Below are positions 6,709 to 64,000 of a DNA stretch of 64,000 bases, one piece after another. A program made the translations under genes and the position numbers. The stretch lies in contig CAWDZL010000002.1 in the NCBI GenBank assembly GCA_963807045.1, positions 1,664,118 through 1,728,117 of the forward strand, written 5' to 3'. The notes below the pieces were generated by a model. The model was not told the origin of the DNA. It saw nothing but the letters and a program-made list of their open reading frames with translations, and ran no database searches. How positions within the stretch are numbered: the first letter of the stretch is position 1; the number at the start of each line of letters is the position of its first letter. This DNA is from an uncultured Actinomycetota bacterium. GTDB lineage: Bacteria; Actinomycetota; Actinomycetes; Actinomycetales; Cellulomonadaceae.

Positions 6709-7019
6709 CACTGCGCCGTCAGCTCCTCCATCACGAGGACGCGTGCGTGGAGCACCGGTCGCTGCTGGAGGGCCGCGCGCACCGCGCGGTGCAGGCCGTC
6801 CTCGAGGTACATGACGCCTCTGAACTGGACCACGTGCGCGAACAGGTCCCCGTAGAACGTCGAGTCCTCCGAGAGCAGCGCGTCGAGGTTGAGGGTGCGC
6901 TTCGTCGTCACGAGCTCGTCCAGGCGCACCTGTCGCGGCGGCACCTCTGCCCACTGCTTGGGCGTGGTGTAGCCGTGGTCTGGATACGGGCGACCGTCGC
7001 CGACCCCCTTGAAGATCAC
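6708..7019 (-). CDS. hypothetical protein (103 aa), translationally coupled to LytR_C gene
   Basis: Protein-like composition. Its stop overlaps the ATG of the downstream gene. Confidence 0.5.
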   Translation of the reverse strand: MIFKGVGDGRPYPDHGYTTPKQWAEVPPRQVRLDELVTTKRTLNLDALLSEDSTFYGDLFAHVVQFRGVMYLEDGLHRAVRAALQQRPVLHARVLVMEELTAQ

Positions 7020-7146
7020 GGGTGGAGTCTACTGGGCGGGCGCTGCGGGGGCCGTCCACCCTGAGACTGAGCTGTCGACGCCCGACGTCGGGTCGCGCGC
7101 GGCGGCGTCGGGGCGCGAGAGTGGGCCCGTGGCTGAGGTGACGCAT

Positions 7147-7668
7147 GTGGTGGTCATGGGGGTGGCCGGGTCCGGCAAGACGACCCTCGCGCTGGAGCTG
7201 CGCCGTCGGCTCGGTTGGCCGTACGCCGAGGCGGACGAGTTCCACCCGCGGGCGAACATCGACAAGATGTCGGCCGGCACGCCACTCACGGACGAGGACC
7301 GCCGGCCGTGGCTCGCCGCGATCCGCGACTGGCTGACGGAGCAGGCGCGCGCGGGGCGCAGCACCATCGTCACGTGCTCGGCGCTGCGGCTGGCCTACCG
7401 GGACGTGCTGCGCTCCGCCGAGGGGCGCGTGGTGTTCGTGCACCTGACCGCCGACGCCGGGCTGCTGGCGGAGCGGATGGCGCACCGGAGCGGCCACTTC
7501 ATGCCGCCCGCGCTCCTGCCGTCGCAGCTGGCGACTCTCGAGCCGCTCGTGGCGGGCGAGGACGGGATCGCGATCGAGGTCGACGTCGCGCCGGCGGAGG
7601 TCGCCGAGCGGGCGATCGGGGTGCTCGGCCTGGCGGCGGTGCCCGGCGGGGTGCCTCCGACGCCGTAG
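7147..7668 (+). CDS. gntK: gluconokinase
   Basis: P-loop VVVMGVAGSGKTT followed by gluconate-kinase-like sequence (EADEFHP...NIDKMSAG, IVTCSALRLAYRD). Start is ambiguous between GTG 7147/7150 and ATG 7156. Confidence 0.75.
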   Translation: MVVMGVAGSGKTTLALELRRRLGWPYAEADEFHPRANIDKMSAGTPLTDEDRRPWLAAIRDWLTEQARAGRSTIVTCSALRLAYRDVLRSAEGRVVFVHLTADAGLLAERMAHRSGHFMPPALLPSQLATLEPLVAGEDGIAIEVDVAPAEVAERAIGVLGLAAVPGGVPPTP

Positions 7669-7702
7669 CCCGGCACCGGAGGCACCGCCCGGGCGCGGCC
7701 TG

Positions 7703-8098
7703 TCAGTGGCTGTGGTCGTGCCCGCTGTGGCTGTGGCTGTGGTCGTCGTCCGCGATCTGTCGGCGGACGTCGTCCATGTCGAGGGCACGCGCCTGGGCGA
7801 TCAGGTCGTCGAGGGCCGGCGCCGGGAGTGCGCCCGGCTGGCCGAACAGCAGGATCCCGTCGCGGAAGATCATCAGGGTCGGGATCGAGGTGATGCCGGC
7901 CTGGGCGGCGAGCGCCTGCTCGGCCTCCGTGTCGACCTTGCCGAAGACGACGTCCGGGTTGGCCGCCGCCGCCTTCTCGTAGACCGGCGCGAACTGACGG
8001 CACGGGCCGCACCACGACGCCCAGAAGTCGACGAGCACGATGTCGTTCTCGGTGACGGTCGGCTCGAAGCTGTCGATGGTCAGCTCGATGGTGGACAT
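7703..8098 (-). CDS. trxA: thioredoxin with His-rich C-terminal tail
   Basis: WCGPC active site. C-terminus DDDHSHSHSGHDHSH. Start was set at the internal MSTIEL Met of track ORF 7703..8149. Confidence 0.8.
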   Translation of the reverse strand: MSTIELTIDSFEPTVTENDIVLVDFWASWCGPCRQFAPVYEKAAAANPDVVFGKVDTEAEQALAAQAGITSIPTLMIFRDGILLFGQPGALPAPALDDLIAQARALDMDDVRRQIADDDHSHSHSGHDHSH

Positions 8099-8130
8099 GT
8101 GGCTCCTCGCTGGTCGGGACGGTCGGGAGA

Positions 8131-8146
8131 ATACCCCACGGGGTAT
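8131..8146. promoter_or_regulatory. 16-bp palindrome ATACCCCACGGGGTAT (CsoR/RicR-type operator-like) about 35 bp upstream of the thioredoxin start
   Basis: Perfect inverted repeat ATACCCC-AC-GGGGTAT seen in the sequence. It resembles the published CsoR operator core TACCC-N-GGGTA. Confidence 0.4.
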
Positions 8147-8224
8147 CAACCATGCGCTTGCCGGAGTATTCCACGATGCTCCTGCGCGCGGCCCGGTGCC
8201 AACGGGTCGCCTCCTCTGGTCCCG

Positions 8225-9034
8225 TCAGCGTGGCGGCCCTGCGGCGATGCGGGCCAGCAGCTCCTCGTGTGAGCCGCGCAGCCCGAACACCGACTCGAAC
8301 CACCATGTCGCCCCGGCCTCGGCGTACTCGGGGGCGAGGCCCCGCTCGCCGGCGTCGGTCGTGCCGTTGACGGCCACGTCCCGCGGACCGTCGGCGTGCT
8401 CAGTCAGGTAGGCGACGGACTCGGCGAGGCGCTCGGGTCCGAACCACACCTTCTGCTCCTCGTCGATCGCTGCCATCAGCCAGCCGTCCCAGCGAGCGGC
8501 CCTGCGCAGCGCGGGCCGGCTCCAGCCGCCCACCCAGACGGGCACCCGGGGCGACTGGGTGGGCCGCCCGGCCACCTGCGCGCCGTCGGACCGGTAGTAG
8601 GTGCCGGTGTGCTGCACGACCTCGCCGTTGCACCAGCGCGTCACCAGATCGAGGGCCTCGTCCGTCATGGCTGCGCGCGTGCGGTCGTCGTGGTGGTCGC
8701 CGAGGGGCGTCAGGTCCTCCGCGACGCCCAGCCCGACCCCGAGCGTCACCCGTCCGCCGCTGAAGGCGTCGAGCGCGTGGACGGACCGGGCGAGCAGGTG
8801 CGGGCGGTAGCGCGGGACGGGAGTGACGTCGGTGACGAGCCGAAGCCGCGAGGTGGTGGCGGCCACCGCGGTGAGGGTGACCCACGGGTCCCCGACGCCG
8901 CCCCAGAAGTGGCAGTGGTCCCAGACGGCCAGCGCGTCCCAGCCGGCGTCCTCCGCGGCTCGTGCCAGCTCGACCACCGGCCCGGGCTCCGCGTACAGCC
9001 CGAACGGGACCACCTCGATGCCGTACCTCACCAC
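8225..9034 (-). CDS. LLM-class F420-dependent oxidoreductase
   Basis: A 269-aa luciferase-like fold sequence. GTG start with GAGGAGG RBS on the minus strand. Confidence 0.8.
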   Translation of the reverse strand: MVRYGIEVVPFGLYAEPGPVVELARAAEDAGWDALAVWDHCHFWGGVGDPWVTLTAVAATTSRLRLVTDVTPVPRYRPHLLARSVHALDAFSGGRVTLGVGLGVAEDLTPLGDHHDDRTRAAMTDEALDLVTRWCNGEVVQHTGTYYRSDGAQVAGRPTQSPRVPVWVGGWSRPALRRAARWDGWLMAAIDEEQKVWFGPERLAESVAYLTEHADGPRDVAVNGTTDAGERGLAPEYAEAGATWWFESVFGLRGSHEELLARIAAGPPR

Positions 9035-28026: not shown

Positions 28027-29635
28027 TCAGGCGCCCGGCAGCGACCACCGCTGGGCGGTGTTGTCGTAGCAGTCCCAGATCTGGGTGCGCTGGCTGTTGA
28101 CGGCCTTGCCGTCCGGGTTGTCGATGCACTTGCCGGACTCGGGGTTCTTGTAGGAGTTCCCCGAGCGGACCCACGTCTGGTTCGACTGGCCCGGGTGGCA
28201 CTCCCAGATCTGCAGCTTCGAGCCGTTGCTGGTGCCCCAGTCCTTCACGTCGAGGCACTTGCCGAGCGCGCGGAGCGTTCCGTCGGAGCCGAAGGTCCAG
28301 CGCTGCGCGTTCGTACCGTTGCAGTCGTAGAGCTGCACGGCAGTCCCGTTGGCGTCCTTCGCCGCGGCGACGTCGAGGCACTTGCCGTCCGAGCCGGAAC
28401 GGATCGCGCCCGTCCCGGTGGTCGGCGTCGGCGTCGGCGTCGTGCCCCCACCGCCCGTGAACGAGGTGCAGCTCGATGCGGGCGCTGCGCGGGTCGCCGT
28501 CGTGCACGAGCGACTCGTGAGCGCCGACGTCGTCGAACGGGAAGGCGTAGGCGCGGCCGTCGGCCATCGCCGCGTGGATCACGCGCCCGTACAGGTTGGG
28601 CGGCGTGCTGCGGTAGTACTGCCCGGCGTCGGACACGGGCTCGGTGGTGCTCGCACCGAGCGTCCCGCGGAACAGCGCGGAGCACAGCGTCCGGGCGATC
28701 GGCCCGACCACCTGGTCGTTCGGGGCGTGCAGGGCGCCGTCACAGCCCCAGACGTCCGCCGACGACGGCCGGTTGAACGAGGCGACCTCACGGCCCGACG
28801 AGTCGGTGAACCGCATGGTGGTGCCGGACGTGCGGCCGGTGTAGCGGACCTCCGGCCGGTCGCCGAACGGCTGCACGGTGAGGTTCCGGCTCGAGTAGGC
28901 GTTCCACGCGGAGGCGATGTAGCTGTCCAGGAAGCCGGCGCTCAGCAGCCCGGCGCTCGCCGCCTTGCCCGGCGCGAGCACGCGCAGCACGGTGCCGTCG
29001 GAGCGGGTGACGACGCTGCGCGCCCACGCCGCGTCGCCCTTCAGTGCGTCGATGATCTGCTGGCGACCGCCCGCGACCAGGCGGCCGGTGGTGCGCGTCG
29101 TACCCGAGGCGCCCGTGACGCTCACGGCGTGCGGGACGGCGAACATGTCGACCTGCGAGCTGTTGAGCCACAGGCCGCCGTTGTCGTAGGTGAGCTCGCT
29201 CCAGTCGAAGAGGATGTCGCGCGACGGGTCGTTGCCCGCCCACGGGGCCGGCTGGACGAGCCCGCCGGGCGTGAGCGAGAACGGCAGCTTCTGCCCGAAC
29301 GAGAAGTAGATGCGGCCGGAGAACCCGCGCGGGACCTGCACGGTCACCGAGCCTCCGTTGGTGGGCCCGGCGATGGCGCTGTCGGGTGCGGGCGACGGCG
29401 GGTTGGCGCCCGCCGGCCACTGGTGGAACGTCCCGCCGGCATCCACCCAGCCGAGCTTGCCCGTCGACAGGTTCGTGCCCTGCACGTAGACGAACACCTG
29501 CTCGCCCCGGCCGGACTGGTTCGCGATCGTGATCGGCAGGCGGTCCGGCCCAGCCGCTGTCGCCGGTGTGGCGGCCCCTGTGATGCCGAGCACCCCCACG
29601 ATCAGCGCGGCGAGCACTATCCGTAGTTTTCGCAT
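28027..29635 (-). CDS. GH64 beta-1,3-glucanase with PT-linker and C-terminal ricin-B lectin (CBM13) domain; the two parts are in different frames with an apparent frameshift near 28450-28470
   Basis: Signal peptide (MRKLRIVLAALIVGVLGITGAATPATA), then a GH64-like catalytic region down to about 28460. In the -1 frame comes the linker GGGGTTPTPTPTTTGTG and a ricin-B domain (QxW repeats, track ORF 28027..28338). Confidence 0.7.
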
Positions 29636-29902
29636 CTTCGTTCCCTTCCCCCCAGGCGGGCCCGCGGGCAGCTCTGCCTGCGGGCGCGAGCGCACGGCAC
29701 CGCGCGCCCCCGAGGTGGCAGCGCGCGATGCCACGGCGCCGCAGAACAATTGGTATCAAACTCTGGCAATTCGTGCATCTGCACGTGTCACCTCGTGGCG
29801 GTGATTCTGCTCCGGGCTACCCGCGGCGCGCCACCAGCCGCCCGGCGACGCCGACGCCGTTCCGCCGTCGGGACCTGCACCTGCCGGCGTGAGACCGGAC
29901 GG

Positions 29903-44735: not shown

Positions 44736-44801
44736 GTGGGGGCGATGGTGCCTAGGGACCAACGTCCCTCAGTGCTCTGGTGAGCGGGTGACTTCCGGCT
44801 C

Positions 44802-45457
44802 AGGCGCTCGCGGTGCCTGTCGCGCACGTGCCCGGGCAGCACAGCCGCCCGACGACGACGCGCAGCCGCGCGGCGAGGTCCGGCACCTCGAGCCTCGGCG
44901 TTCGAGACGGCCTCGAGCATCAGCCCGTCCACGAGGCAGGCCACGATCTGCACGACCTGCTGGCGGGGGATCGCCGGGTCGCTCGGCGGCAGGACGCGGT
45001 CCACGAGCGAGCCGATCATCTCCGACCATGCGCGCGTCACCGGGCGCAACGAGACGCTGCGCGTCGCCTCCATGAACATCTCGAACAGCGCCAGGTCGTA
45101 CAGCGGGTCGGCCGTGGTCTTGTCGAAGAACATCTCCGTGAGGATCTCGACCGACCGGTCCACGTCGACCGGGCCCTCGACCGCCTCGACGATCGCGACC
45201 AGGCGGTCCGACTCGGCCGCGCGCGCGTGCCCCATCGTCTGCAGCAGCAGGTCGTCGCGGTCGGTGAAGTAGTACGTCGTCGAGCCGAGCGGCACCTCGG
45301 CGGCCTTGGCCACCGCCCGGTGCGTGACGCCGACGGAGCCGCCGGTGCCGAAGACCCGCACCGCGGCGTCGAGGATCTGCTCGCGCTTGCGCTGGCCGCT
45401 CGTCGTCGTGGCGCGCTCGCGCGGGCGGCGGCTGATCCGGTGCTCTGCCCCGGCCAT
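44802..45457 (-). CDS. TetR family transcriptional regulator (AguR-like); 3' end undefined because there is no in-frame stop
   Basis: GAGGAG RBS and ATG 45457. HTH QILDAAVRVFGTGGSVGVTHRAVAKAAEVPLGSTTYYF. The frame runs on for more than 2 kb without a stop. The end given here is a guess at the first stop in an adjacent frame. Confidence 0.6.
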
Positions 45458-45613: not shown

Positions 45614-46391
45614 GTGATCACGCTGCGCCGCGAGGAACCCTCCGACCACCGAGCCGTCGAGCTCCTGACCCGCGACGCGTTCTGGGGCAGCGAGATCCCG
45701 CGCTGTGTGGAGCCCCTGCTGGTCCGGCGCCTGCGGGGAGCCGCGTCGCTCGTCCCGGAGCTGAACCTGGTGGCCGAGGACGACGGCGTCATCGTCGGGC
45801 ACGTCATCTACACGCGGGCGCGGGTGGTCGGGCCGGACGGCGAGGCCGAGGTGCTGACCTTCGGCCCGCTGAGCGTGCAGCCGGCGGCGCAGGGAACCGG
45901 CGTCGGCTCCGCGCTGATGCGGCACACGCTCGGTGGGGCCACGGAAGCTCGGGCACCGCGCCGTCGTCGTCTACGGCCACCCGGGCTACTACCCGCGGTT
46001 CGGATTCGTCCGCGGCGCCGACGTGGGGGTCACCGCGCCCGGCGGCGCGACGTTCGACGGGCTGATGGCGCTCGCTCTGGTGCCGGGCGGGCTCGACGGC
46101 GTCCGTGGCGAGTTCCACGAGGACCCGGTGTTCCAGGTCGACCCGGCCGAGGCGGATGCCTTCGACCTCGCCGAGTACCCGCCCAAGGAGCCGGCCGAGC
46201 TGACGCCACTGGAGGCGCTCGCGGGCACGGTGCCCGACGACGTCGTCGCGGCCCTGGGTGCGGCGGGCTTCCCGAACGTGCAGATGGTGCGGCGGACGAG
46301 CCACCGCGAGCTCGCGGCGGTGCCGGGGGTGGGTGAGTCGGGGCGCGACGCCATCGCAGCCTTCCTGCACGCCCGCGGCCTGGCGTGGTGA
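45614..46391 (+). CDS. YhbS-like GNAT acetyltransferase with C-terminal HhH-like extension; apparent +1 frameshift near 45930
   Basis: The N-terminal part is in the frame of track ORF 44813 (ITLRREEPSDHRAVELL...QGTGVGSALMRHTLGG). It continues in the frame of track ORF 45933 (RKLGHRAVVVYGHPGYYPRFGF). Confidence 0.55.
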
Positions 46392-50384: not shown

Positions 50385-50542
50385 GGCGGCAGCCTCGCAG
50401 CGCCGTCGATCTTGCCTCCAACCCGCTCACCTGTCGGCCGCCGTCGTGTCACGGGCTTCCGCTTCCTTGGCCTCCTCGACCTCGAGCGGGCCTGCGACAT
50501 CGCGCGCATCCCTGATCTGGCTTTGTAGGCGAGGATCGGGGC

Positions 50543-51163
50543 GTGGAACTGTCGGAGGTCGTGCGCCGTCGGCGGATGGTGCGCCGCTACCTGCCTGAGC
50601 CGGTGGACCGGGCTGTCGTCGACCGGATGCTCGCCGCGGCGGTGCGCGCGCCGAGCGCCGGGTTCACGCAGGGCTGGGCGTTCCTCGTGCTCGACCGGCC
50701 CGACGACGTCGACCGGTTCTGGGTGGCGACGACGCCTCCCGAGCGCGCGACCGAGCCGGACGCGTGGCTCCGCGGGATGCGGACCGCGCCCGTCGTCATC
50801 GTGCCGCTGTCCAGCGAGGCCGCCTACGTCGGCCGTTACGCCGAGCCCGACAAGGGCTGGACCGACGCCGACGCGGTGCGCTGGCCGGTGCCGTACTGGT
50901 ACGTCGACGCTGGGATGGCGTCGCTGCTCGCGCTGCTCACCGCCGTGGACGAGGGCCTCGGCGCGGCGTTCTTCGGCGTGCCCGCTGCGGGCGTCGCGCC
51001 GCTGCGGGAGGCGTTCGGGATCCCCGAGGAGTACGCGCCGGTCGGGGCGATCGTCGTCGGGCATCCCGCGCCGCCCACCGAGCCGGGCGCCGCGGGATCG
51101 CCGTCCCGGCGACGCCGTCGACCGCTCGACGAGGTGGTGCACCGGGGCCGCTGGTCCACCTGA
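50543..51163 (+). CDS. nitroreductase family protein (FbiB C-terminal-domain-like, stand-alone)
   Basis: Nitroreductase fold signatures (RRMVRRY, RAPSAGFTQGW). It is convergent with cofC. Confidence 0.65.
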   Translation: MELSEVVRRRRMVRRYLPEPVDRAVVDRMLAAAVRAPSAGFTQGWAFLVLDRPDDVDRFWVATTPPERATEPDAWLRGMRTAPVVIVPLSSEAAYVGRYAEPDKGWTDADAVRWPVPYWYVDAGMASLLALLTAVDEGLGAAFFGVPAAGVAPLREAFGIPEEYAPVGAIVVGHPAPPTEPGAAGSPSRRRRRPLDEVVHRGRWST

Positions 51164-51165
51164 GG

Positions 51166-51831
51166 TCAGCCGCCCAGGCGCGCGCGCACGGCGTCGGGCA
51201 GGGCGAGCCAGTCCGCCGGGGTGTCGAGGTCGGTCGCCGTCCCCGAGCGCTGCACGACGGCGGTCGCCAGCCCGAGCGCGGCGGCCTCCGCGTAGTGCGC
51301 GGCGCAGCTGCCGACACCGAACCGGAACACGAAGTCGTGCACGTCCGCGCCCAGGACCAGGGCGTTCGTCCCCGAGCCGGCGCCGTCCGGTGCGATGACC
51401 ACCGGGGCGTCGGGGGCGAGGAGCGCGGCGACGTCGTCGGGCGTGAGCAGCGGCAGGTCCGCGTGGATCACGAGCACCCGAGCGGCGCCGTCGGCCACCG
51501 CGGCCTCCTGGCCGAGCGCGACCGCCTCGTTGAGTCCCCGGCGGTCGGGGGCCTGTGCCAGCACGCGCAGGCGCGGGTCCGTGGGGAGGGCGTCCGCCGC
51601 GAACTCCGGGTCGCCCGTGACGACCAGCACGCCCGCCACGGCCGGAGCGTCGAGCAGCGTGCCGACCACATGCCGCGCGAGCAGCGTCACGAGCCGGGCG
51701 CGCTCGGCGTCGTCGAAGCGCTCGGCCAGGCGCGTCTTGCCGCTCGACCCGTCGCGCAGCGGTACGACGGCGAGCACCGGACCGCGCGCGTGGCCTCCCG
51801 GGGCGACGCCGCCGACGTCGTCCCTGCTCAC
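51166..51831 (-). CDS. cofC: 2-phospho-L-lactate guanylyltransferase (CofC/FbiD)
   Basis: AVVPLRDGSSGKTRL N-terminal motif. GTG 51831 overlaps the cofD stop. Confidence 0.8.
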   Translation of the reverse strand: MSRDDVGGVAPGGHARGPVLAVVPLRDGSSGKTRLAERFDDAERARLVTLLARHVVGTLLDAPAVAGVLVVTGDPEFAADALPTDPRLRVLAQAPDRRGLNEAVALGQEAAVADGAARVLVIHADLPLLTPDDVAALLAPDAPVVIAPDGAGSGTNALVLGADVHDFVFRFGVGSCAAHYAEAAALGLATAVVQRSGTATDLDTPADWLALPDAVRARLGG

Positions 51832-52772
51832 CGGGCGTTCTCGGCCGCGGCGAGGATCTCCCGCGCCAGCCGCGCACGGTCCTCGCCCTGGCCCATGACG
51901 GTGTGCGCGGTCGCGACGCGCATGCCCAGGTCGGCGATCGCGGGCGCCAGGGCGGTGTCCTCCTTGTCCATGACGAACACGTCCACGAGCCCGGCGTAGA
52001 GGCGCGCGACGCCGAGCGCCGACACGTCGTGGCCGAGGCTCGCGAGCATCGCGGCGGCCGGCCCCTTCAGCGCCCGCCCGCCGACCACCGGGCTCACGGC
52101 CACGCGCCGGGCCGCCGACCCGGCCAGCGCCTCGCGCGCCCCCGGCACCGCGAGGATCGGCCCGATGCTCACGAACGGGTTGGACGGCCCCAGCACGACG
52201 ACGTCCGACGATGTCAGTGCCGCCAGCACCCCGGGCGCCGGGCGGGCCGCGTCGATCCCGTCGAGCTCGACGCCCAGCACCGTGTCCGCGTGCCGCCGTC
52301 CGACGAAGTACTCCTGGAAGCCGAGCCGGCCGGCTGCGGTGAGCAGCGTCGTCGCCACCCGGTCGTCGCTCATGGGCAGCACCCGCGCGCCGACGCCGAG
52401 CGCCGCGCACAGCTGTGCGGTGACCTCGGTGAGGGTCGCGCCGGCGCGTAGGCGGGCGGTGCGGACGACGTGCGTGGCGAGGTCCTTGTCCCCGAGCAGG
52501 AACCAGGTGTCCGCCCCGAGCTCGCCCATGGCGGTGTGCGCGACGGACGTGTCGCCCGCGACGCCCCAGCCCTTGGCCGGGTCGATGCGTCCCGCGAGCG
52601 TGTACATGACGGTGTCGACGTCGGGGCTGATCCACAGGCCGTGGAGCTCGGTGTCGTCGGCCGTGTTCGCGACGACGGTCAGCTCGACGGGCAGCTGGGC
52701 GAACCCGTGCGCGAGCTTGGCGCCGCCGCCACCGCCGGAGAGGACCGTGACGGACGGGCTGGAGGCGGGCAC
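51828..52772 (-). CDS. cofD: 2-phospho-L-lactate transferase (CofD/FbiA)
   Basis: VTVLSGGGGGAKL N-terminal glycine-rich motif and CofD family length. Confidence 0.85.
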   Translation of the reverse strand: MPASSPSVTVLSGGGGGAKLAHGFAQLPVELTVVANTADDTELHGLWISPDVDTVMYTLAGRIDPAKGWGVAGDTSVAHTAMGELGADTWFLLGDKDLATHVVRTARLRAGATLTEVTAQLCAALGVGARVLPMSDDRVATTLLTAAGRLGFQEYFVGRRHADTVLGVELDGIDAARPAPGVLAALTSSDVVVLGPSNPFVSIGPILAVPGAREALAGSAARRVAVSPVVGGRALKGPAAAMLASLGHDVSALGVARLYAGLVDVFVMDKEDTALAPAIADLGMRVATAHTVMGQGEDRARLAREILAAAENAR

Positions 52773-53853: not shown

Positions 53854-54168
53854 TCAGCCGGCCGGCGTCACCCGCGCGGTCCCGTCGCGCACGACGATCT
53901 GCTGGTCGGGGCACACCGGCCCCGGTACGGTCACCCGGCGCCCCGAGGGGAACGTGACGACGACGTCGCCGGGCGAGCAGCCGTAGTCCAGGAGCACGGC
54001 GCCGCCGTCGGCGTCCACGGTGAACGGGTCCTCGTCGCCGGGATCGATCACGACGTCGTCCGGGCCTCGGTTCTCGATCGACAGGTCGCCGGCGTCGGCG
54101 CACCCGGTCAGTACCGCTGCCGCGACGACGAGCAGCACGCTCGCGGCGATCCTCGTCCGGCCGCTCAT
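53854..54168 (-). CDS. small lipoprotein
   Basis: Signal peptide with lipobox LTGC. ATG 54168 is in frame within track ORF 53854..54291. Confidence 0.5.
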   Translation of the reverse strand: MSGRTRIAASVLLVVAAAVLTGCADAGDLSIENRGPDDVVIDPGDEDPFTVDADGGAVLLDYGCSPGDVVVTFPSGRRVTVPGPVCPDQQIVVRDGTARVTPAG

Positions 54169-54313
54169 CCGTGCCCCCGTCCCGCCGCCCGTCCCGTGCT
54201 CGCGACCGCTTCGCGCTCCGGCCCATCCCGTGCTCCCGACCATAGCCAGGCCCGCTCGGCGCCACGGGCACCACCACACCCTCGCCACCATCCCTCCACG
54301 CCGACGACGCGGC

Positions 54314-54365
54314 GCCGAGGCTGGGAGGGTTAGGTGCCTCCCGGCGCGACAACCCTCCCAGCCTC
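54314..54365. repeat. 52-bp direct repeat copy B (same hairpin-containing unit)
   Basis: Read in the sequence. It lies downstream of lipoprotein gene 54403-55099. Confidence 0.8.
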
Positions 54366-54402
54366 GCCCCAGGCGGGCTGGGGCCGGGGGCGGGCGTTCG
54401 GC

Positions 54403-55099
54403 TCAGTCGCTCATGGACGCGCAGGTCAGCGACGTCGGGTCCAGGTCCACGAGGGCGGTCGCGTCCGCGTTCGGGCCCCACGCCGCCTGCACGGGGATGG
54501 TCTCGCCGGTCGAGACGCCGGACCCGGGGTAGATCGCGGCCGCGGGCGCGCCGTCGCAGAGCCTCGAGCAGCGCAGGGGTGCCGTCCGGCGGGCGCACGA
54601 CGACGGCGTCGATCACCACCCAGGTCGGGGTGCCGTCCGCCATCGCCCCTGTCGAGCGGAAGAGCGCGAGGAGCGCGGCGTCCGTGGGCCCAGGTGTGCC
54701 GCCGGGGCCGACGACGGCCGCCCCGCCGATCGAGTACCCGCACGTCTCGCCGCTCCCACCGTCGAAGCACGAGCCGAACGTCGTGACCAGAGTCAGGGGC
54801 GTCCCGCCGACCACCCAGTGCCACGCACCGTCCGCGCCGCTCTCGTCGTAGGAGTCCTGGCCGATGAGCGACGCCGGGTCGGGGAACCCCGGCGGGAGGG
54901 CGTCGGCGTCGGGCGTGGGGGTGGGTGCTGACGTGGGCGTCGGGGTGGCCTTCGGAGCCGACGTCTTCGCGGGCGCCGATGTCGAGGGCGTGGCCGACGG
55001 CGTCGGGCCGGGCTCGCTGCCACCCGAGCCGCAGGCGGTGACTGCCCAGGTCAGCACCAGTGCGCCTACCAGGACCGCGGTGCCGCGCCTCGCCGTCAT
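54403..55099 (-). CDS. PT-linker lipoprotein; apparent frameshift near 54553-54565
   Basis: MTARRGTAVLVGALVLTWAVTAC lipobox, then a PT-rich linker and a domain. The reading frame switches after ...DGTPALLEAL, then reaches TGA at 54403 in the +1 frame. Confidence 0.45.
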
Positions 55100-55797: not shown

Positions 55798-56112
55798 TCA
55801 CGCCGTCGGCGGCGCCGCCAGGTCGAAGACGAGGACGGCGTCGGCGTTGTCGCCGATCAGGCGCGCGAGCGGCTGGTGCGTGGGGTGCGGCAGGTACGCG
55901 TCGCGAGCCGCGGCGTCGACGAAGCGCATGTACAGGCCGTACTCGAAGCCCTGCTCGAGCCCCTCGGGGCTCACGCCCGGACCATGGGTGGTCTCGACGA
56001 CGCCCGGGATCTCCGCCCGCACCGCCGCCACCAGCCGCTCGATGCGCGCCGCGACGTCGGGCGCCGCCGTGGACGACCACCGCATCAGCACCACGTGGAT
56101 GACCTCGGCCAC
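55798..56112 (-). CDS. Dabb family (stress-responsive alpha/beta-barrel) protein
   Basis: About 104 aa with a Dabb-like sequence. GTG 56112 was chosen. Confidence 0.6.
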   Translation of the reverse strand: MAEVIHVVLMRWSSTAAPDVAARIERLVAAVRAEIPGVVETTHGPGVSPEGLEQGFEYGLYMRFVDAAARDAYLPHPTHQPLARLIGDNADAVLVFDLAAPPTA

Positions 56113-56239
56113 TGCGACTCCTCCCGGCAGGACGCGTCCCATGATGCCGGTCGCGGCGGATGCCGGCCGGCCGACGGCACCCACCTGGTGCGCTCCGCCT
56201 GCATCCGGGTCACCGACCGAACCCTCGGCGACCCGCGCT

Positions 56240-58847
56240 TCAGAGCCGCGGGTCGACGGCCTCGGACTCCAGTGCCAGCACCGCGAACACGGCCTCGTGG
56301 ACGCGCCACAGTGGCTCGCCCGCGCAGAGCCGCGTGAGCGCCTCCAGCCCGAGCGCGTACTCCCGCAGCGCGAGGCTGCGCTTGCGCCCGAGGTGCCGCG
56401 CCCTCAGCCGTGTCAGGTGCTCCGGCTCGGTGTAGTCGGGGCCGTAGATGATCCGGAGGTACTCCCGCCCGCGCACCTTGATGCCCGGCTGCACGAGGCC
56501 GCGGCGTCCCCGGACCTCGTTGGCGAGCGGCTTGACCACCATGCCCTCGCCGCCCGCACCGGTGAGCTCGGTCCACCAGGCGACGCCGGCGGCCCAGGAC
56601 GCCTCGTCCGAAAGGTCGACGACCGCCCGCCGCGTCGCGGCGAGGATCCCGGACCGGTCGGCGTCGACCAGGGCGTCCGCGACGCCGAGGTGCCACAGGT
56701 GGTCGCGCTTCTCGAACGTCCCGGCGTCGGTGGCGAGCAGCTGGAACGGGGCCAGCCGCACGCCGTCGAGCCCGTCGGTGGGCCACACGTAGCGGCGGTA
56801 CGCGGCGCAGAACGCCTCCGCGTTCGCGCCCCGGGCCTGCGTCCGCGCCAGCAGCTCGTCGACCGGCAGCCCGGCCGCCGCCGCCGATTCCAGCGCGGCG
56901 GTCGCGGGCGGCAGCGCGGTGCGGGCTGCGGCGCCGACGGCGGCGTACTGGGAGCGCAGGAGGTCCTCCGCCTTCACCGACCACGGCATGCAGCTCGCAG
57001 TCCAGGAGCAGCCAGTCGGCGGGTGCGCCGTCGCGGCCGACCTGCCCCCACAGCCCGGCCTCCCGCGCGGACGTCCGGACGACGTCGAGCAGCCGCTCGG
57101 TCCGCACGTCGTCGAAGAACGGCCGCCCGGTGCGGGTGTGGACGACGCCGGACGTCCCGGCGGGCATGCCGAAGCGGGCCGCGGCGACGTCGGCGTCGCG
57201 GCACACGAGCGCCACGGCGCGCGACCCCATGTGCTTCTCCTCGCACACGACGCGGTCGACGCCGTCGTCCCGGAAGGCGCGGAAGGCCTGGTCGGGGTGC
57301 TCGAGGAGCTCGCCGTCGGCGGCCGTGGCGCACGGGCTCATGGTGGGCGGCAGGTAGATGAGCCAGCGCGGGTCGACCGCGAACCGGCTCATCACCTCCA
57401 GCGCACCGGCGGCGTTCTCCTCCGCGATCGTCACGCGCCCGTGGCGGCTGGTCTCGACGACCCGCTTGCCCAGGACGTCGGTGACGTCCAGCACGTCGGG
57501 GTCGCGTCGGGCCGCGCCGGCCGCGCCGGAAGCGCCCGCTGCGCCGTCGTCGGCAGCGTCGTCCCCGGTGGGGAACGGCCGCGCCGGCTCGTACCAGACG
57601 CGCTCGGCCGGGACCTGCACGACCTCCTTCTCGGGGTACCGCAGGGCGGTGAGGTGCCCGCCGAAGACGCACCCGGTGTCCAGGCACATCGTGCCGTTGA
57701 CCCAGGTGGGGACGGGCGTGGGCGTGTGGCCGTAGAGGACCGTCGCGCGACCGCGGTAGTCGTCGGCCCACGGCAGGCGCACGGGCAGGCCGAACTCGTC
57801 GGTCTCGCCGGTGGTGTCGCCGTACAGCGCGAACGACCGGACGCGCCCCGAGGCCCGGTTGTGGAACGCCTCCTTCAGGCCGGCGTGCGCGACGACGAGG
57901 TTGCCGTCGTCGAGGACGAGGTGCGCGACGAGGCCGTCGCAGAACGTGCGCACCTCGGTCCGGAACTCCGCCGGCTCGTCCGCGAGCTGGGCGAGCGTCG
58001 TCTCGAGGCCGTGCGACACCTGGACCTGGCGCCCGTCGAGCGCGCGCACCAGCTTGTTCTCGTGGTTGCCGGGCACGGCGAGCGCGTGACCCGCCGCGAC
58101 CATGCCCATGACCAGGCGCAGGACGCCGGCGCTGTCCGGCCCGCGGTCCACGAGGTCGCCGACGAACACCGCCCGCCGCCCGTCCGGGTGCGCGGCGTCC
58201 ATGGGCCGGCCCTCGGCGTCGCGCACGATCGCGTATCCGAGCGCGCCGAGCAGCGCCTCCAGCTCGGAGCGGCACCCGTGCACGTCGCCGACGACGTCGA
58301 ACGGCCCGTGGTCGGCGCGCCGGTCGCTGCGGAGCGGGGCGCGTTCGATCACCGCGGCGTCGACCTCCTCGGTGCCCGAGAGCACGTGGACGGTGCGGAA
58401 GCCCTCGCGGCCGAGGCTGCGCAGCGAGCGCCGCAGCTGCTCGCGCTGACGCCGGACGACGTGCGTGGCGAGCTGCCGGTCCGGTCGCCCGGAGTTGCGG
58501 TCCAGGCAGACCTGCTCCGGCACGTCGAGCACGATCGCGACCGGCAGGACGTCGTGGGCCCGGGCCAGCTCGACGAGACTCTGCCGCGCGGACTTCTGCA
58601 CGTTCGTGGCGTCGACGACGGTCAGCAGCCCGGCGTCGAGGCGCTTCCCGGCGATGTGGTGCAGGACGTCGAACGCCGCGGTCGTGGCCTCCTGCGAGTT
58701 CACGTCGTTGGAGACGAGGCCGCGGCAGAAGTCCGACGAGAGCGTTTCGAAGGGACCGAAGTGGCGGGCGGCGAACGTCGACTTGCCGGAGCCGGACGCC
58801 CCGACGAGGACGACGAGCGACAGGGCGGGGACGGTGAAGGTGCTCAT
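56240..58847 (-). CDS. pnkp: bacterial polynucleotide kinase-phosphatase Pnkp (kinase, metallophosphatase and ligase-like domains); apparent frameshift near 56985-56995
   Basis: P-loop LVGASGSGKST. Calcineurin-like phosphatase motifs (GDVHG, GDLVDRG, GNHE). The C-terminal adenylyltransferase-like domain continues in track ORF 56240..56989 (MPWSVKAEDLL...GMVVKP). GAAGGAGG RBS. The ATG overlaps the hen1 stop. Confidence 0.8.
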
Positions 58848-60358
58848 CGGGCGCCTCCTTCGTCGGTCGTCGTGGGCGTCGTGCGGGTCGTGCTGGCCGC
58901 GCCGGCCGCGCCGGCCGTGCGGCGGAAGACCGCCATCTGCGTCGGCGGCCCGACGTCGGGGTCCTCCGGCCCTACCGGGAGCAGCTCGACGTCGTACTCG
59001 TGGCGGTGCGCGGCCGCCTCGGCCCAGGTGCGGAACTCGGCGCGTGTCCACTCGAAGCGGTGGTCGTGGTGGCGCATCGTGCCGGCGTCGAGCGTGGGGT
59101 AGCGGACGTTGTGCTCGGCGTTCGGCGTGGTGACGATCAGGGTGGCCGGTGCCGCGCCGCCCAGGACGGCTCGCTCGAGCGCGGCGAGGCGCGGCGGGTC
59201 GACGTGCTCGATGACCTCCATGAGCACAGCTGCGTCGAACCCGGCGACGCGCGCGTCGGTGTACGTGACGGAGGACTGGGCAAGCTCGATGCGCTGCCGC
59301 AGGCGGTCGGGGAGCGTGTCGAGGTGCAGGCGGCGGGCCGCGGCGGACAGGGCCCGGGCCGAGACGTCGACGCCGAGGAGCCGCTCGTACCGCGCGTCCG
59401 CGAGGAGCTCGCTGAGCAGGGTTCCCTCGCCGCAGCCGAGGTCGACGACGCTGCGCGCCCCGGCGTCGTGCAGCTGGGCGGTGACCGCGTCGAGACGCTG
59501 GCGTGCCAGGGCGACGGGCGCCGCCGTCGGCGTCTCGGTGGGCGTCTCGGCGCTCGCGGCCGCGTCCTCGGCCTCGGGGTCGACGGCGTCGTCCAGGGTC
59601 TCCGGGCGGGCGTCGTCGACCTCGGCGAGGCGCGCGACGGCGGACGCGGCGAGGCTGTGCCGGTTGGCGAGGTAGCGGCGGGCGATCTCGTCACGTGCGG
59701 GGTGGCCGGCGAGCCAGCCCTCGCCGGCGCGGACCAGCTTCTCGACCTCGTCGGAGCCGACCCAGTAGTGCTTGGCGGCGTCGAGGGTGGGCAGCAGGAC
59801 GTACAGGTGGCTGAGTGCGTCGGCGACCGTCTGCGCGCCCGTGAGGCGCAGGTCGACGTAGCGGGAGTCGCCCCAGGCGGGGATGGTCGGGTCGAGCGCG
59901 ACCGGGCGCGCGTCGACCTCCCACCCGAGTGGCGCGAAGAGCCGGACGGCGGCGTCGGCCCCACCGCGGCAGGGCACCGCGGGGACGTGGACGGTCAGGT
60001 CCCAGCGGCGTGCGGGCAGGTCGGGGCGGGCGTCGCACCGGCCGGACGCGGCGGTCCGGAAGACCTTGCCGAGCGCGACGGCGAGCATCGAGGAGGCCGC
60101 GTAGGGGCGGTCGTTGACGTACTGCGCCAGGCTGAAGGCGACGTCGCGTGGGGCGCTCCGGCCCTTCTGGCGCACCAGACCGACGGGGTCGACCTCGAGG
60201 AGCAGCGCAACGGTGCAGCGCTCTGCGGTCGCCTCCGGGTAGAACACGTGCGCGACGCCGAACGACTGCTCGAACGCCTGCACGCGGCCGGGGTGCTTGT
60301 GCAGGAGGTAGCCGAGGTCGGTGGCGTCAGGGCCGGTGGCGGTCAGAGTCAGGAACAC
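58844..60358 (-). CDS. hen1: bacterial Hen1 3'-terminal RNA ribose 2'-O-methyltransferase
   Basis: C-terminal SAM-MTase motifs (VVDLGCGEG, FDAAVLMEVIEH) and a Hen1-type N-terminal domain. Translationally coupled to pnkp. Confidence 0.85.
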   Translation of the reverse strand: MFLTLTATGPDATDLGYLLHKHPGRVQAFEQSFGVAHVFYPEATAERCTVALLLEVDPVGLVRQKGRSAPRDVAFSLAQYVNDRPYAASSMLAVALGKVFRTAASGRCDARPDLPARRWDLTVHVPAVPCRGGADAAVRLFAPLGWEVDARPVALDPTIPAWGDSRYVDLRLTGAQTVADALSHLYVLLPTLDAAKHYWVGSDEVEKLVRAGEGWLAGHPARDEIARRYLANRHSLAASAVARLAEVDDARPETLDDAVDPEAEDAAASAETPTETPTAAPVALARQRLDAVTAQLHDAGARSVVDLGCGEGTLLSELLADARYERLLGVDVSARALSAAARRLHLDTLPDRLRQRIELAQSSVTYTDARVAGFDAAVLMEVIEHVDPPRLAALERAVLGGAAPATLIVTTPNAEHNVRYPTLDAGTMRHHDHRFEWTRAEFRTWAEAAAHRHEYDVELLPVGPEDPDVGPPTQMAVFRRTAGAAGAASTTRTTPTTTDEGGAR

Positions 60359-60429: not shown

Positions 60430-61077
60430 CTACGCGCTCGCCGTGATGTTGATGATCAGCGCGATGATCACGGTGCCGAACAGGTACGACAGCAGGGCGT
60501 GCCGCAACGCGTGGCGCCGCATCCGCCACGAGGCGAGGTCGGTGTCGGAGATCGCGAAGCTCATCCCGACGGTGAACGCGACGTACGCGAAGTCGCTGTA
60601 GCGGGGCGGCGCGTCCTGGTGGAAGTCGATGCCGCCGGCCTCGTCGAAGTACAGGCGCGCGTACCGCAGGGCATACGCCGTGTGGATCGCCGCCCACGAC
60701 GTCAGCACGGCGGCGAGCGTCGCGCTCATCGCCAGGACGTCGTGCGAGGACCCGCCGAACAGCACACCGGCCACCCCGCCGAGGCTGAGCAGGGCGGCGG
60801 CCACCAGCACGACTTCGGAGCCGGGGCGGGTGGGCTCCTCGCGGGTGGCGTGCGCGAGGGTCTCCTCGGCGTCCATCGTGCCGATCGCGGCCCACGTCCA
60901 CCCGACGAACACCAGCGCGGTGCACGCCCACCCCGCGAGCAGGGCGGACAGGTACGACGGCCACACGACCGCCAGCGCGACCACCAGCCCGACGGCGGCC
61001 CCGCACCCGAGCCGAACAAGGGGCGCGACATCGAGCAGACGGTCCGAGCGGGCGAGGCGGGCCATGCCCTCAGTCAA
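60430..61077 (-). CDS. DUF1345-like membrane protein
   Basis: Four TM helices. Protein-like composition. Confidence 0.55.
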   Translation of the reverse strand: MTEGMARLARSDRLLDVAPLVRLGCGAAVGLVVALAVVWPSYLSALLAGWACTALVFVGWTWAAIGTMDAEETLAHATREEPTRPGSEVVLVAAALLSLGGVAGVLFGGSSHDVLAMSATLAAVLTSWAAIHTAYALRYARLYFDEAGGIDFHQDAPPRYSDFAYVAFTVGMSFAISDTDLASWRMRRHALRHALLSYLFGTVIIALIINITASA

Positions 61078-61928
61078 CTCCCGACGGCGACCGGCCGTGC
61101 CGGGTCGCGTACCCAGTGCGACCAGGAGCCCGGGTACAGGGCGATCGACAGCCCGGCATCGTGACCGGCGAGGATGAGCTGGCTGGCCGTCACGCCCGAC
61201 CCGCAGTAGGCGGTGACGGCCGGGGCGTCGTCGTCGGGCTTGGCGTGGCTGCCGACGAGGAGCCGGCGCACCTGGTCAGGCGGCAGGTAGTGCCCGTCGG
61301 GGCCCTGGAGCGACGTCGTCGGGCAGCTCAGGGCGCCGGGGATGTGCCCGGCCACCGGGTCCACCGGCTCGATCTCGCCGCGGAAGCGCTCGGCCGCTCG
61401 GGCGTCCAGCAGCCGGCCGACCTGCCCGGCAAGCACCTGCTCGACGTCGACCACCGGCATCGACCCCTCCCGCACGACGACGTCGTCCGTCGCCGCCGGG
61501 GGCACGTCGCCCGCCTCGACCGGACCGCCGACCGCGACCCAGGCGGCGAGACCGCCGTCGAGCACGCGGGTGTTCTCGTGCCCCACCCAGCGCAGGCACC
61601 ACCAGGCGCGCGCCGCGGCACCGCCGGCCCCGCCGTCGTACACGACGACGGCGCGACCGGGCGAGATCCCGAGCCGGCGCATCATCGCGGCGAGCTGCTC
61701 CGGCGTCGGGAGCGGGTGCCGCCCGCCGTCGCCGGGCGGCGCGGCGAGCTCGGTGTCGAGGTCGCAGAAGACCGCGCCGGGCAGGTGTCCCGCGGCGTAG
61801 GCGACGCGGTCGGCCCCGGCCAGGGCCCACCGGACGTCGATCAGCAGCGGGCGGGATGCGTCCGGGCTGGCGGTGAGCAGGGCGAGCAGCTCGTCGGGCT
61901 GGATCAAGGCGCGTGGCGATGCGGGCAC
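61074..61928 (-). CDS. thiosulfate/3-mercaptopyruvate sulfurtransferase (tandem rhodanese)
   Basis: Two rhodanese domains with active-site CGSGVTA. GTG 61928 was chosen as start. Confidence 0.75.
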   Translation of the reverse strand: MPASPRALIQPDELLALLTASPDASRPLLIDVRWALAGADRVAYAAGHLPGAVFCDLDTELAAPPGDGGRHPLPTPEQLAAMMRRLGISPGRAVVVYDGGAGGAAARAWWCLRWVGHENTRVLDGGLAAWVAVGGPVEAGDVPPAATDDVVVREGSMPVVDVEQVLAGQVGRLLDARAAERFRGEIEPVDPVAGHIPGALSCPTTSLQGPDGHYLPPDQVRRLLVGSHAKPDDDAPAVTAYCGSGVTASQLILAGHDAGLSIALYPGSWSHWVRDPARPVAVGS

Positions 61929-62065
61929 GCCCCCACTCTGCTGCACCGGGCGCCCGCTGTGGGCGGACGACGACGTCGCCCGGGCCTGCACCTGCTCTCG
62001 TGCCACCCGAACGCGGTCATGACGAAGGGCCCGCCACCCACGTCACCGCAGGTCACGGGCCCTTC

Positions 62066-62110
62066 TTGCGCGGAGGATGGGGGATTCGAACCCCCGAGGG
62101 CTTTCACCCA
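62066..62110 (-). other. tRNA 3' fragment (T-arm GGGGGTTCGAATCCCCC plus acceptor 3' strand), not a complete tRNA; candidate att site remnant
   Basis: The T-loop/T-stem and 7-nt acceptor strand read perfectly. No complementary 5' acceptor strand or D/anticodon arms were found within 100 nt. Confidence 0.55.
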
Positions 62111-62272
62111 ACACGCTTTCCAAGTGGCCTGGCGGGGTGGTGGGTGGGTGCGGGTGGACGTGTTTGGGCTGGTCAGGACGCTGCGCGGACGGTGGCGGAC
62201 TGGCGCGGCGGGTTTGGTCTGGAGACAGACTGCTACCAAGACTGCTACCGGCACGGACTCGCGACTCTGGGC

Positions 62273-63991
62273 TCAGGCGCCGTGCCAGCCGAGCTTCCCA
62301 AGTGCCGTGTCTGGGTCGATGAAGCCCCAGTCGAGTGCGGCCTTGCGTAGGGCTTCAAGGACGACGGAGCGCTCGGCGCCCTGTGTGAGCCAGCTTCGCT
62401 CCCACGCGGAGGACGCAGCCTGCAGTGGCATGTCTCTCCCGGCCCCGAGCGCGGTGAGGTCGAGTAACTCGCGGAGGTCGGCTGTGCCTGCCGGCCTCGC
62501 CTCCATGTGTAGCTCAGCCGAGACGATTCGGTCTTCGCCCCGCGCGATGGCTCGGACGGCCGGCGAAGTTGTTGCTAGAGCAGCACGGAGGAGCGCCACC
62601 CAGCAGTCCACGACGTCCGACAGCGGGAGGGGTGCCTTGACCTCTAGAACCCGGTCCGCGAGGACGTACAGTCCTGGCGTCATCGTCCCCATCGAGACGA
62701 CAAGGCGCTCCTCGTCGCCCCGAGTAAAGACGGCGTTCCCGCTCGACTGCCACTCTGATCCAGGCTGCTGCCAGGCGCCACCTCCATCTGAGGCGAGCGC
62801 AGCCGACAGCAGCTTCCTATGCCGGGGTTCGATCTGGACTAGAAGGTGACCCGGCAAGCTCCTGATGATCGCCGCTCGGATGACGAGAGTGCAGCGGGCG
62901 CCGTCACTCCTGGTTGGGTCGGCGTACGTGCCGGGGCGAAGAGTCGGAACAAGGGGGAGAGGATGCGTTGAGCCCATCGCCTCGGGAGTCCGCTGCTTTG
63001 GCGCGGGGTCATGAAGAAGACGACCCGCTAGGAGGGCGTGCACTTGCGCGGCAATGACGGGGACGCTGTCGTCGTCCCGGCGCGCCACGATTGAGAAGAA
63101 GGACCCCTCGATGCGGTTCGCTGCTAGCGCGCCGTGGACCAGGAAGGGCCGAAGGACCGGATCCTGCCTCGGCACGTGGACAGCGATGACACCACCGTCC
63201 GTGCCGATGACGGGGTGGAAGGCGACGCGGAGGCCCGGCACTGGCGGATAGACACGGGCATCGAGGAGATGACGGAGTCTCCGGGTCTCAGCTCTCGAAC
63301 TTGGAATCGGGGCCACCGAGGTGACGATCTCGCCCCGCGGGCCGGTCTTCGTCCGGTAGCCGAGCAGCAGCAAGCCTCCCTGCCCATTCGCCAGTCGGGC
63401 CACGTCCTGGGCAGCTTCGATCGCCTGCCCTGCCTCGGACAACCGGTAGGGGGCCGACTTGACCTCGAGCCAGTCGCTCTCCCGTTGACCAGCCAGCAGG
63501 TCCCCTCTTCCTGCTGCGACGAGAGCCAGGGCGCTCTCGGTGTCGAGCGGCCCGGCCTGCAGCAACGCGGAGAGCCCGTCACCTGCAAGGACGAACTGGC
63601 TGATAGTGGCCGCTGAGCGTGGCCGGAGTTGCGCGCGGATCTCCACCCAGTCGGCGCGACTTGTGGCCCGCCCGAGGTCGACCTCGGGGTAGCGAAATGC
63701 AGGTGAGAGCTGCCTTGAAGCAATCGTGCCGATCTCGGTATCGGTTAGTTGTGCATCACGCCGCGCGGTAGTCCGGACGACGACGGAGATGCTCCGGCCG
63801 ACGACCATCGAGGTCAGTTGGGTTGGGGCGAGCTCCTCCTCCCGCGCTTCTGCGAGCTTCCCGGAACTCCTCGCCGGGGATTGTGGTGAAGTAGACCTCG
63901 AACTCGTCGTCCCTTGAGCCACCCAGCCTCGCGTTGGCGCGCCTGAGAACGGCGGCGACGTCGCGCACGCGCTCGTCTCGGATCCAGTCAA
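62273..63991 (-). CDS. AlbA_2 (Schlafen-like putative DNA-binding) domain protein, large uncharacterized C-terminal region
   Basis: SDWLEVKS...LANGQGGLLLLG matches the AlbA_2 core pattern. GC is lower than the flanking chromosome. Confidence 0.55.
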   Translation of the reverse strand: MTGSETSACATSPPFSGAPTRGWVAQGTTSSRSTSPQSPARSSGKLAEAREEELAPTQLTSMVVGRSISVVVRTTARRDAQLTDTEIGTIASRQLSPAFRYPEVDLGRATSRADWVEIRAQLRPRSAATISQFVLAGDGLSALLQAGPLDTESALALVAAGRGDLLAGQRESDWLEVKSAPYRLSEAGQAIEAAQDVARLANGQGGLLLLGYRTKTGPRGEIVTSVAPIPSSRAETRRLRHLLDARVYPPVPGLRVAFHPVIGTDGGVIAVHVPRQDPVLRPFLVHGALAANRIEGSFFSIVARRDDDSVPVIAAQVHALLAGRLLHDPAPKQRTPEAMGSTHPLPLVPTLRPGTYADPTRSDGARCTLVIRAAIIRSLPGHLLVQIEPRHRKLLSAALASDGGGAWQQPGSEWQSSGNAVFTRGDEERLVVSMGTMTPGLYVLADRVLEVKAPLPLSDVVDCWVALLRAALATTSPAVRAIARGEDRIVSAELHMEARPAGTADLRELLDLTALGAGRDMPLQAASSAWERSWLTQGAERSVVLEALRKAALDWGFIDPDTALGKLGWHGA

Positions 63992-64000
63992 CGGGGAGGG

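Follow-up and report, generated by a model that had tools for sequence, protein, structure and literature searches.

Organization of the locus

The hen1 and pnkp genes considered here occupy positions 56240..60358 of a 64,000-nucleotide stretch of DNA (referred to below, at its full length, as the window) from contig CAWDZL010000002.1 of an uncultured Actinomycetota bacterium (assembly GCA_963807045.1). Judging from the predicted products, the locus is a canonical bacterial Hen1–Pnkp RNA repair cassette, carried by a high-GC actinobacterium of the Cellulomonas/Actinotalea group, and its pnkp gene, as deposited, is interrupted by one extra base. The cassette consists of two co-oriented adjacent genes on the minus strand, with hen1 (58844..60358) upstream of pnkp (56240..58847). 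The hen1 open reading frame (ORF) starts with GTG and encodes 504 aa, while pnkp starts with the ATG at 58847..58845 and its final codon and stop end at 56240. Direct reading of the minus strand showed that this ATG overlaps the hen1 stop codon (TGA, 58846..58844) by 4 bp in an ATGA (58844..58847), an arrangement typical of translational coupling, and the two genes are predicted to be translationally coupled. A GGAGG within the 3′ end of hen1 (58854..58858, minus strand), 6 nt upstream of the pnkp ATG, could serve as a putative Shine–Dalgarno sequence for pnkp. The outer coordinates, strand, gene order and 4-bp overlap proposed in an earlier note on this DNA were all borne out by the sequence reading. 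The intergenic region upstream of hen1 was predicted to fold no better than shuffled sequence (z = 0.17). Since the GC content is ~73-75% across the entire window, long spurious ORFs are frequent in it.

Identity of Hen1 and Pnkp

The hen1 product matched the NCBIfam equivalog model for bacterial Hen1 (TIGR04074, bacter_Hen1) with 675.8 bits over the whole profile (positions 1-462 of 462; cut-off 340), and the Pfam model Hen1_L (PF12623) with 381 bits, again over the full profile (1-242 of 242); class-I methyltransferase models matched as well. The N-terminal domain that would activate the Pnkp ligase (aa 1-245, about 59624..60358, minus strand) was delimited by Hen1_L and by the structure of a Hen1 N-domain (PDB 4dqz; 266 bits over residues 1-231). 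A C-terminal 2′-O-methyltransferase domain, predicted to depend on S-adenosylmethionine (SAM) and Mn2+, is present at aa about 276-480 (about 58919..59533, minus strand), where the Hen1 methyltransferase structures 3jwh/3jwg aligned with about 205-210 bits and the DLGCGEG, EVIEH and HHDHRFEW motifs are conserved. The hen1 call of the earlier note was thus confirmed, its N-terminal domain included, by both Hen1_L (381 bits) and TIGR04074 (676 bits).

With one base removed, pnkp encodes an 868-aa protein in which all catalytic residues are intact. This repaired Pnkp matched the Pnkp equivalog TIGR04075 with 1377 bits (profile 3-851 of 851; cut-off 750) and the ligase family PNKP_ligase (PF16542) with 592 bits (profile 2-376 of 377), and the Pfam models AAA_33 and Metallophos also matched. 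Its coding sequence falls into two segments on the minus strand. The 5′ segment (56991..58847, codons 1-619) encodes kinase and phosphatase along with the beginning of the ligase, whereas the 3′ segment (56240..56989, codons 620-868 plus the stop) stands in a different frame. The P-loop 5′-OH kinase (aa 4-171; AAA_33) aligned without gaps to PDB 4gp6 over residues 4-171 (210 bits), keeping the P-loop GASGSGKST and the SSDFCRG motif. The binuclear metallophosphoesterase (aa 174-422; Metallophos) aligned to PDB 4j6o with 342 bits and with all catalytic and metal-binding residues in register, in the motifs GDVHG, GDLVDRG, GNHE, AHAG and GHTP. All motifs of the predicted ATP-dependent ligase (adenylyltransferase) domain are present at the sequence level, of which EEKHMGSR with the lysine nucleophile (aa 536-543) and motif III, LDCEL (aa 615-619), lie in the 5′ segment, the latter at its very end, and motif IV, EGMVVK (aa 767-772), and motif V, IKVRG (aa 789-793), lie in the 3′ segment. 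The 3′ segment also encodes the helical insert that binds the Hen1 N-domain and the C-terminal helical module. The alignment to the ligase of Clostridium thermocellum Pnkp (CthPnkp; PDB 4drf/3ty5) is continuous through LDCELMPWSaKA, and therefore confirms the junction of the two frames. The Pnkp assignment of the earlier note was upheld by PNKP_ligase (592 bits) and TIGR04075 (1377 bits), with the ligase domain recovered; of the three-domain architecture that it described, all domains are encoded, but not in one continuous ORF, as a +1 shift cuts the ligase after motif III.

A single extra base in pnkp

The interval 56240..58847 measures 2608 nt, leaving a remainder of 1 on division by 3. The surplus could be traced to a single base at 56990/56991 (either the G at 56991 or the C at 56990), where the minus strand reads GAGCT[G]CATG, a GAGCTC with one base added (bracketed here and below). 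In codons, the strand runs GAG CTG C ATG CCG TGG, with the extra base directly past motif III (LDCEL|MPWS). The closest relative among the loci compared below, L001 from Cellulomonas sp. N5CT, carries GAGCT-CATGCCGTGG at this site, which in the gapped alignment stands as GAGCT-CATGCC. Read from 58847, the frame gives ADWLLLDCEL and then runs into nonsense rich in Arg, Ala, Gly and Pro down to a stop at 56085, and the conserved continuation MPWSVKAEDLL is found in another frame, in an ORF of 249 codons at 56240..56989. The ORF as written thus extends through kinase and phosphatase and roughly one-third of the way into the ligase, after which come 301 out-of-frame residues. A plot of GC content at third codon positions (GC3), in which no homology was used, placed the phase switch at about 56980-57000, with GC3 at 0.95-1.0 on either side.

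The break falls past ligase motifs I and III and ahead of the helical insert binding the Hen1 N-domain, motifs IV and V and the C-terminal module. Without motifs IV and V and the Hen1-binding insert, the ORF as written would be expected to yield a truncated, inactive ligase. A single NCBI/ENA contig of 2,928,518 bp carries the 249-aa Pnkp fragment, Hen1 and the Dabb protein encoded downstream as called proteins, and each of the three forms a single-member cluster. Because the 249-aa fragment is a called protein there, the lesion exists in the public assembly and did not arise when the window was extracted.

Conservation of the cassette in relatives

Relatives were sought by a scan of species-representative genomes, which returned more than 593 matching stretches, and 80 loci were kept for comparison. 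The two pnkp segments stand in the same frame in all 80 loci, with no stop between them in 79. The sole locus with an in-frame pnkp stop is L044, from a metagenome-assembled genome (Actinomycetota bacterium SMAG_U4702; Pnkp at 6360..8891). Gene order is equally stable, hen1 lying directly upstream of pnkp in 79/80 loci and the remaining locus being cut by a contig end; a 4-bp ATGA or GTGA overlap is the commonest arrangement (33 of ~64 scorable loci). It is shared by L001, whose Hen1 is 82% identical to that of the window. The best protein matches were to intact orthologues from Cellulomonas and Actinotalea, 855-865 aa long and 83-86% identical over 100% of the repaired Pnkp. The earlier note had called the pair sporadically distributed, a description that is weak for this clade, since many species of Cellulomonas and Actinotalea carry intact orthologues (75-86% identity) and the scan returned more than 593 stretches.

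In none of the 80 loci, L001 included, did a flanking gene of the window turn up less than 10 kb from the cassette; the two-gene module is conserved and its neighbourhood is not. Against L001, the ratio of nonsynonymous to synonymous substitution rates (dN/dS, Nei–Gojobori) was 0.179 for codons 1-619 and 0.180 for codons 620-868, and the 249 codons downstream of the lesion contain no further lesion. No relaxation of constraint is evident downstream of the extra base.

Further +1 frameshifts at GAGCTC sites

The whole window was scanned for same-strand changes of coding phase without an intervening stop codon, by a composition-based procedure that is blind to sequence motifs, and the flagged genes were then translated and repaired by removal of one base. 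Besides pnkp, four further +1 frameshifts emerged. The first lies on the minus strand in a gene for a GH64 β-1,3-glucanase with a Ricin-B (CBM13) domain (28027..29749, lesion at ~28469, GAGCT[G]C), the Ricin-B part being in the other frame; after repair, Ricin_B was matched at profile positions 2-126 of 126 and its score rose from 81 to 103 bits. The second affects a TetR regulator (about 44800..45457, minus strand, lesion at ~44893, GAG[G]CTC) whose frame is stop-free for 2.2 kb, and the repaired product matched TetR_C_31 (profile 2-103 of 107) across the junction. The third splits a GNAT acetyltransferase over two frames (about 45614..46391, plus strand, lesion at ~45946, GA[A]GCTC), with Acetyltransf_9 (profile 3-124 of 127) likewise spanning the junction after repair. 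The fourth is in a lipoprotein gene (54403..55099, minus strand, lesion at ~54562, GAG[G]CTC), where the repair was based on composition and translation only.

All five lesions, with pnkp at 56990/56991 (minus strand, GAGCT[G]C) as the fifth, consist of one extra base in a GAGCTC that encodes a Glu-Leu codon pair. The association with the motif came to light on inspection, after the frameshifts had been picked up by the motif-blind scan. The window contains 149 7-mers of the GAGCTC-plus-one type in 64 kb, so that one would fall within ±15 nt of a junction by chance in ~7% of cases and within 2 nt, as in pnkp, in less than 1%. With a per-junction chance of roughly 7%, an estimate made post hoc, the finding of five junctions out of five in this context lies far beyond chance. 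A control based on the +1 variants of other palindromic hexamers proved unusable, because contamination by gene boundaries made it too noisy. Intact GAGCTC sites number 53 in the window, a normal density compared with relatives, and inspection of broken and intact GAGCTC sites revealed no extended motif separating the two.

Assembly error or genuine mutation

The extra base in pnkp most probably reflects a motif-specific consensus error in the assembly as deposited, with the gene itself intact in the organism. An artefact is favoured because five unrelated genes of the window share a +1 lesion in the GAGCTC context; five inactivated genes of about 60, all broken alike, are hard to reconcile with a free-living bacterium. 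A 5-methylcytosine-methylated motif, GRGCYC, which covers GAGCTC, is documented in another high-GC actinobacterium, and indels in nanopore data inflate counts of coding sequences through frameshifts (PMC11649196). Several observations pull the other way. Any error process would have struck only about 9% of the GAGCTC sites, given the 53 that are intact. Protein look-ups returned relatives at up to 86% identity and neither reads nor a second assembly of the same species, and a metagenome scan for the pnkp frameshift site, in which either state was allowed, gave no match. Scans at the cassette found no promoter or terminator consensus. The equal dN/dS on either side of the lesion would also be expected for a very recent real frameshift.

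That last possibility, a real and very recent mutation, appears unlikely to us. It would make pnkp a fresh pseudogene, or leave a kinase-phosphatase that has lost ligase function and ends in 301 nonsense residues, so that the cassette would be in the course of being lost and hen1 would be without its sealing partner. The frameshift does exist in the deposited assembly, a stop codon interrupts pnkp in one relative too (L044), and flanks that are unconserved even in L001 suggest that the locus is dispensable or mobile. Nevertheless, five +1 lesions per about 60 genes, all at one hexamer, would extrapolate to >200 inactivated genes per ~3 Mb genome, and pnkp shows neither a second lesion nor any relaxation of constraint downstream, with a dN/dS of 0.18 on both sides and a GC3 of 0.95-1.0.

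A broader proposal, which we regard as improbable, is that the extra bases are real and were introduced into at least 5 genes in 64 kb by a recent GAGCTC-specific process (for example, self-restriction with error-prone joining), which would make pnkp a brand-new pseudogene and hen1 an orphan. In its specific form, the five insertions would be scars of SacI-type self-cleavage (GAGCT^C) followed by error-prone end joining, or of a similar site-specific mutational process. All five frameshifts are indeed GAGCTC plus one base, and three of them (pnkp, GH64 and GNAT) allow the additional base to be assigned precisely to the point where SacI cuts; actinomycetes are the source of SacI and SstI, and Ku/LigD end joining exists in actinobacteria. 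However, the insertions in the TetR and lipoprotein genes (GAG[G]CTC) lie off the cut position, the implied load of gene inactivation is implausibly high, and a technical cause accounts for the same pattern more simply, so that such scars seem very improbable.

Expression of pnkp despite the extra base, whether through programmed +1 ribosomal frameshifting or by re-initiation at ATG 56989 to give two polypeptides, can practically be dismissed: this ATG is the conserved Met of ELMPWS and could in principle start the 249-aa fragment, but no Shine–Dalgarno sequence precedes it, the adenylyltransferase fold is interrupted between its motifs III and IV, Pnkp is one continuous protein in 79/80 relatives, and four genes of unrelated function show the same lesion. 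A further reason for rejecting programmed frameshifting or a split gene is that no slippery or stall sequence is found at GAG CUG C AUG.

Predicted repair pathway and known systems

The mechanism proposed here was drawn by orthology from what has been established biochemically for the C. thermocellum and Anabaena systems (PMC3675462, PMC4411300). The Pnkp kinase would phosphorylate the 5′-OH end of a broken RNA, and the Mn2+-dependent phosphoesterase would open and remove the 2′,3′-cyclic phosphate at the other end. The C-terminal domain of Hen1 would methylate the 2′-OH of the terminal ribose, and the ligase, unlocked by the Hen1 N-domain, would then seal the break, leaving a 2′-O-methyl junction that should resist re-cleavage. 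The in vivo substrates of Pnkp–Hen1 are still unknown (PMC4411300). The earlier note was right to recognize a Hen1–Pnkp healing-and-sealing pair, and its further statement that the pair repairs ribotoxin-cleaved tRNAs holds in vitro only, given these unknown substrates (PMC4411300).

The C. thermocellum proteins CthPnkp and CthHen1 (4gp6, 4j6o, 3ty5, 4drf/4e6n, 4dqz, 3jwg) are encoded by the same co-oriented two-gene cassette and have the same domain order. Their active-site residues are kept in the window, namely the P-loop Lys/Ser, the Asp general base and the ligase KHMGS lysine, together with the phosphatase residues Asp187, His189, Asp233, Arg237, Asn263, His264, His323 and His376 of CthPnkp; the list of Pnkp active-site residues was taken from the literature (PMC3675462). 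Unlike C. thermocellum, the host of the window is an actinobacterium with 75% GC, and its Pnkp is a diverged orthologue; its Hen1 has a longer acidic and Thr-Pro linker and a low-complexity C-terminal tail, and its pnkp ORF is interrupted by one additional nucleotide in the assembly. The methyltransferase of Anabaena variabilis Hen1 (AvaHen1; 3jwh/3jwj) aligned over ~200 residues with 210 bits, with SAM- and metal-binding motifs conserved. The A. variabilis Pnkp–Hen1 system, used for the in vitro reconstitution of RNA repair with 2′-O-methylation, is cyanobacterial, whereas the proteins described here are actinobacterial.

The orthologues in the Cellulomonas/Actinotalea group (for example, those of C. 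xiejunii, C. bogoriensis and C. flavigena), annotated by NCBI as polynucleotide kinase-phosphatase, are 83-86% identical and encoded by continuous ORFs of about 855-865 aa, but their flanking genes are wholly unlike those of the window. More distant is the Pnkp1–Rnl–Hen1 heterohexamer of Capnocytophaga (4xru/4xrp), which performs the same four chemistries with a related ligase and Hen1 (PMC4411300). Its chains in 4xru gave weak matches to the window proteins (Rnl 25 bits, Hen1 35 bits), and it differs in having a separate Rnl ligase, a T4-like Pnkp1 with a phosphatase of another superfamily and an unlinked hen1. The cassette is not of this three-protein type, for its ligase is fused to the kinase and to a lambda-phosphatase-type phosphoesterase, and hen1 is adjacent.

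Genomic neighbourhood

Upstream of hen1, on the minus strand, lie genes for a DUF1345 membrane protein (60430..61077) and a rhodanese/3-mercaptopyruvate sulfurtransferase-like protein (61074..62006). An AlbA_2/Schlafen-like ORF (62273..63991, minus strand) follows 2 kb upstream of hen1 in a stretch of lower GC content (0.67 in 62001..64000, compared with about 0.75). Its Pfam score of 20.7 bits is below the threshold of 25.3, it had no match in PADLOC or PDB, and only 7 homologues, all hypothetical (from Kribbella and metagenomes), were found in a 5.8-billion-protein database; we make no claim that it encodes a nuclease. These homologues are 628-673 aa long, and the ORF may be cut by the end of the window. 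Downstream, a gene for a Dabb stress-responsive alpha/beta barrel protein (55798..56184, minus strand) starts 55 nt past the pnkp stop and may be co-transcribed with pnkp; none of the 80 related loci has it beside the cassette.

The neighbours belong to the DUF1345, rhodanese, Dabb, DivIVA-domain, CofC/CofD, nitroreductase, MMPL, aldo-keto reductase and lipoprotein families. Genes for coenzyme F420 biosynthesis, CofD (51828..52772) and CofC (about 51166..51800), both on the minus strand, represent ordinary actinobacterial content, and a nitroreductase-family gene (50516..51163, plus strand) adjoins them. No ribotoxin annotation was found by Pfam and NCBIfam among the genes checked at ~42.8-64 kb, and PADLOC gave no defence-system match for seven ORFs around the cassette. 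The exposure to RNA-targeting toxins that the earlier note read from the cassette is inference only, and the idea of a linked toxin has no support in the window.

Two adjacent small lipoprotein genes on the minus strand (53854..54174 and 54403..55099) each encode a signal peptide and a lipobox Cys and matched no Pfam or NCBIfam family. In the latter and larger of the two, which carries the fourth lesion above, a GGGCGT-type tandem repeat at 54898..54948 encodes a linker rich in Pro and Thr. Coding-phase signals are unstable across 53854..55099. Rfam gave no match in the window at gathering thresholds, and a tRNA-like call by ARAGORN at 3512..3585 (minus strand), with a 4-nt anticodon loop assignment (cgga) and in a strongly coding region, is most likely a false positive.

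Implications

Pnkp–Hen1 has been characterized biochemically and structurally since 2005-2015, and NCBI annotates it through equivalog models. The cassette is another actinobacterial member of this already known system and adds nothing new on RNA repair. In the assembly, pnkp would be annotated as a pseudogene or as two fragments and, because at least 4 other genes are broken alike at GAGCTC-like sites, the gene content and pseudogene counts of this genome are untrustworthy until they are checked against the reads. The recurrent GAGCTC-plus-one lesions are the only unusual thing about the locus, and are mostly a matter of assembly quality. Should the lesions be real, they would indicate a site-specific mutational process in this actinobacterium, which would be moderately interesting.

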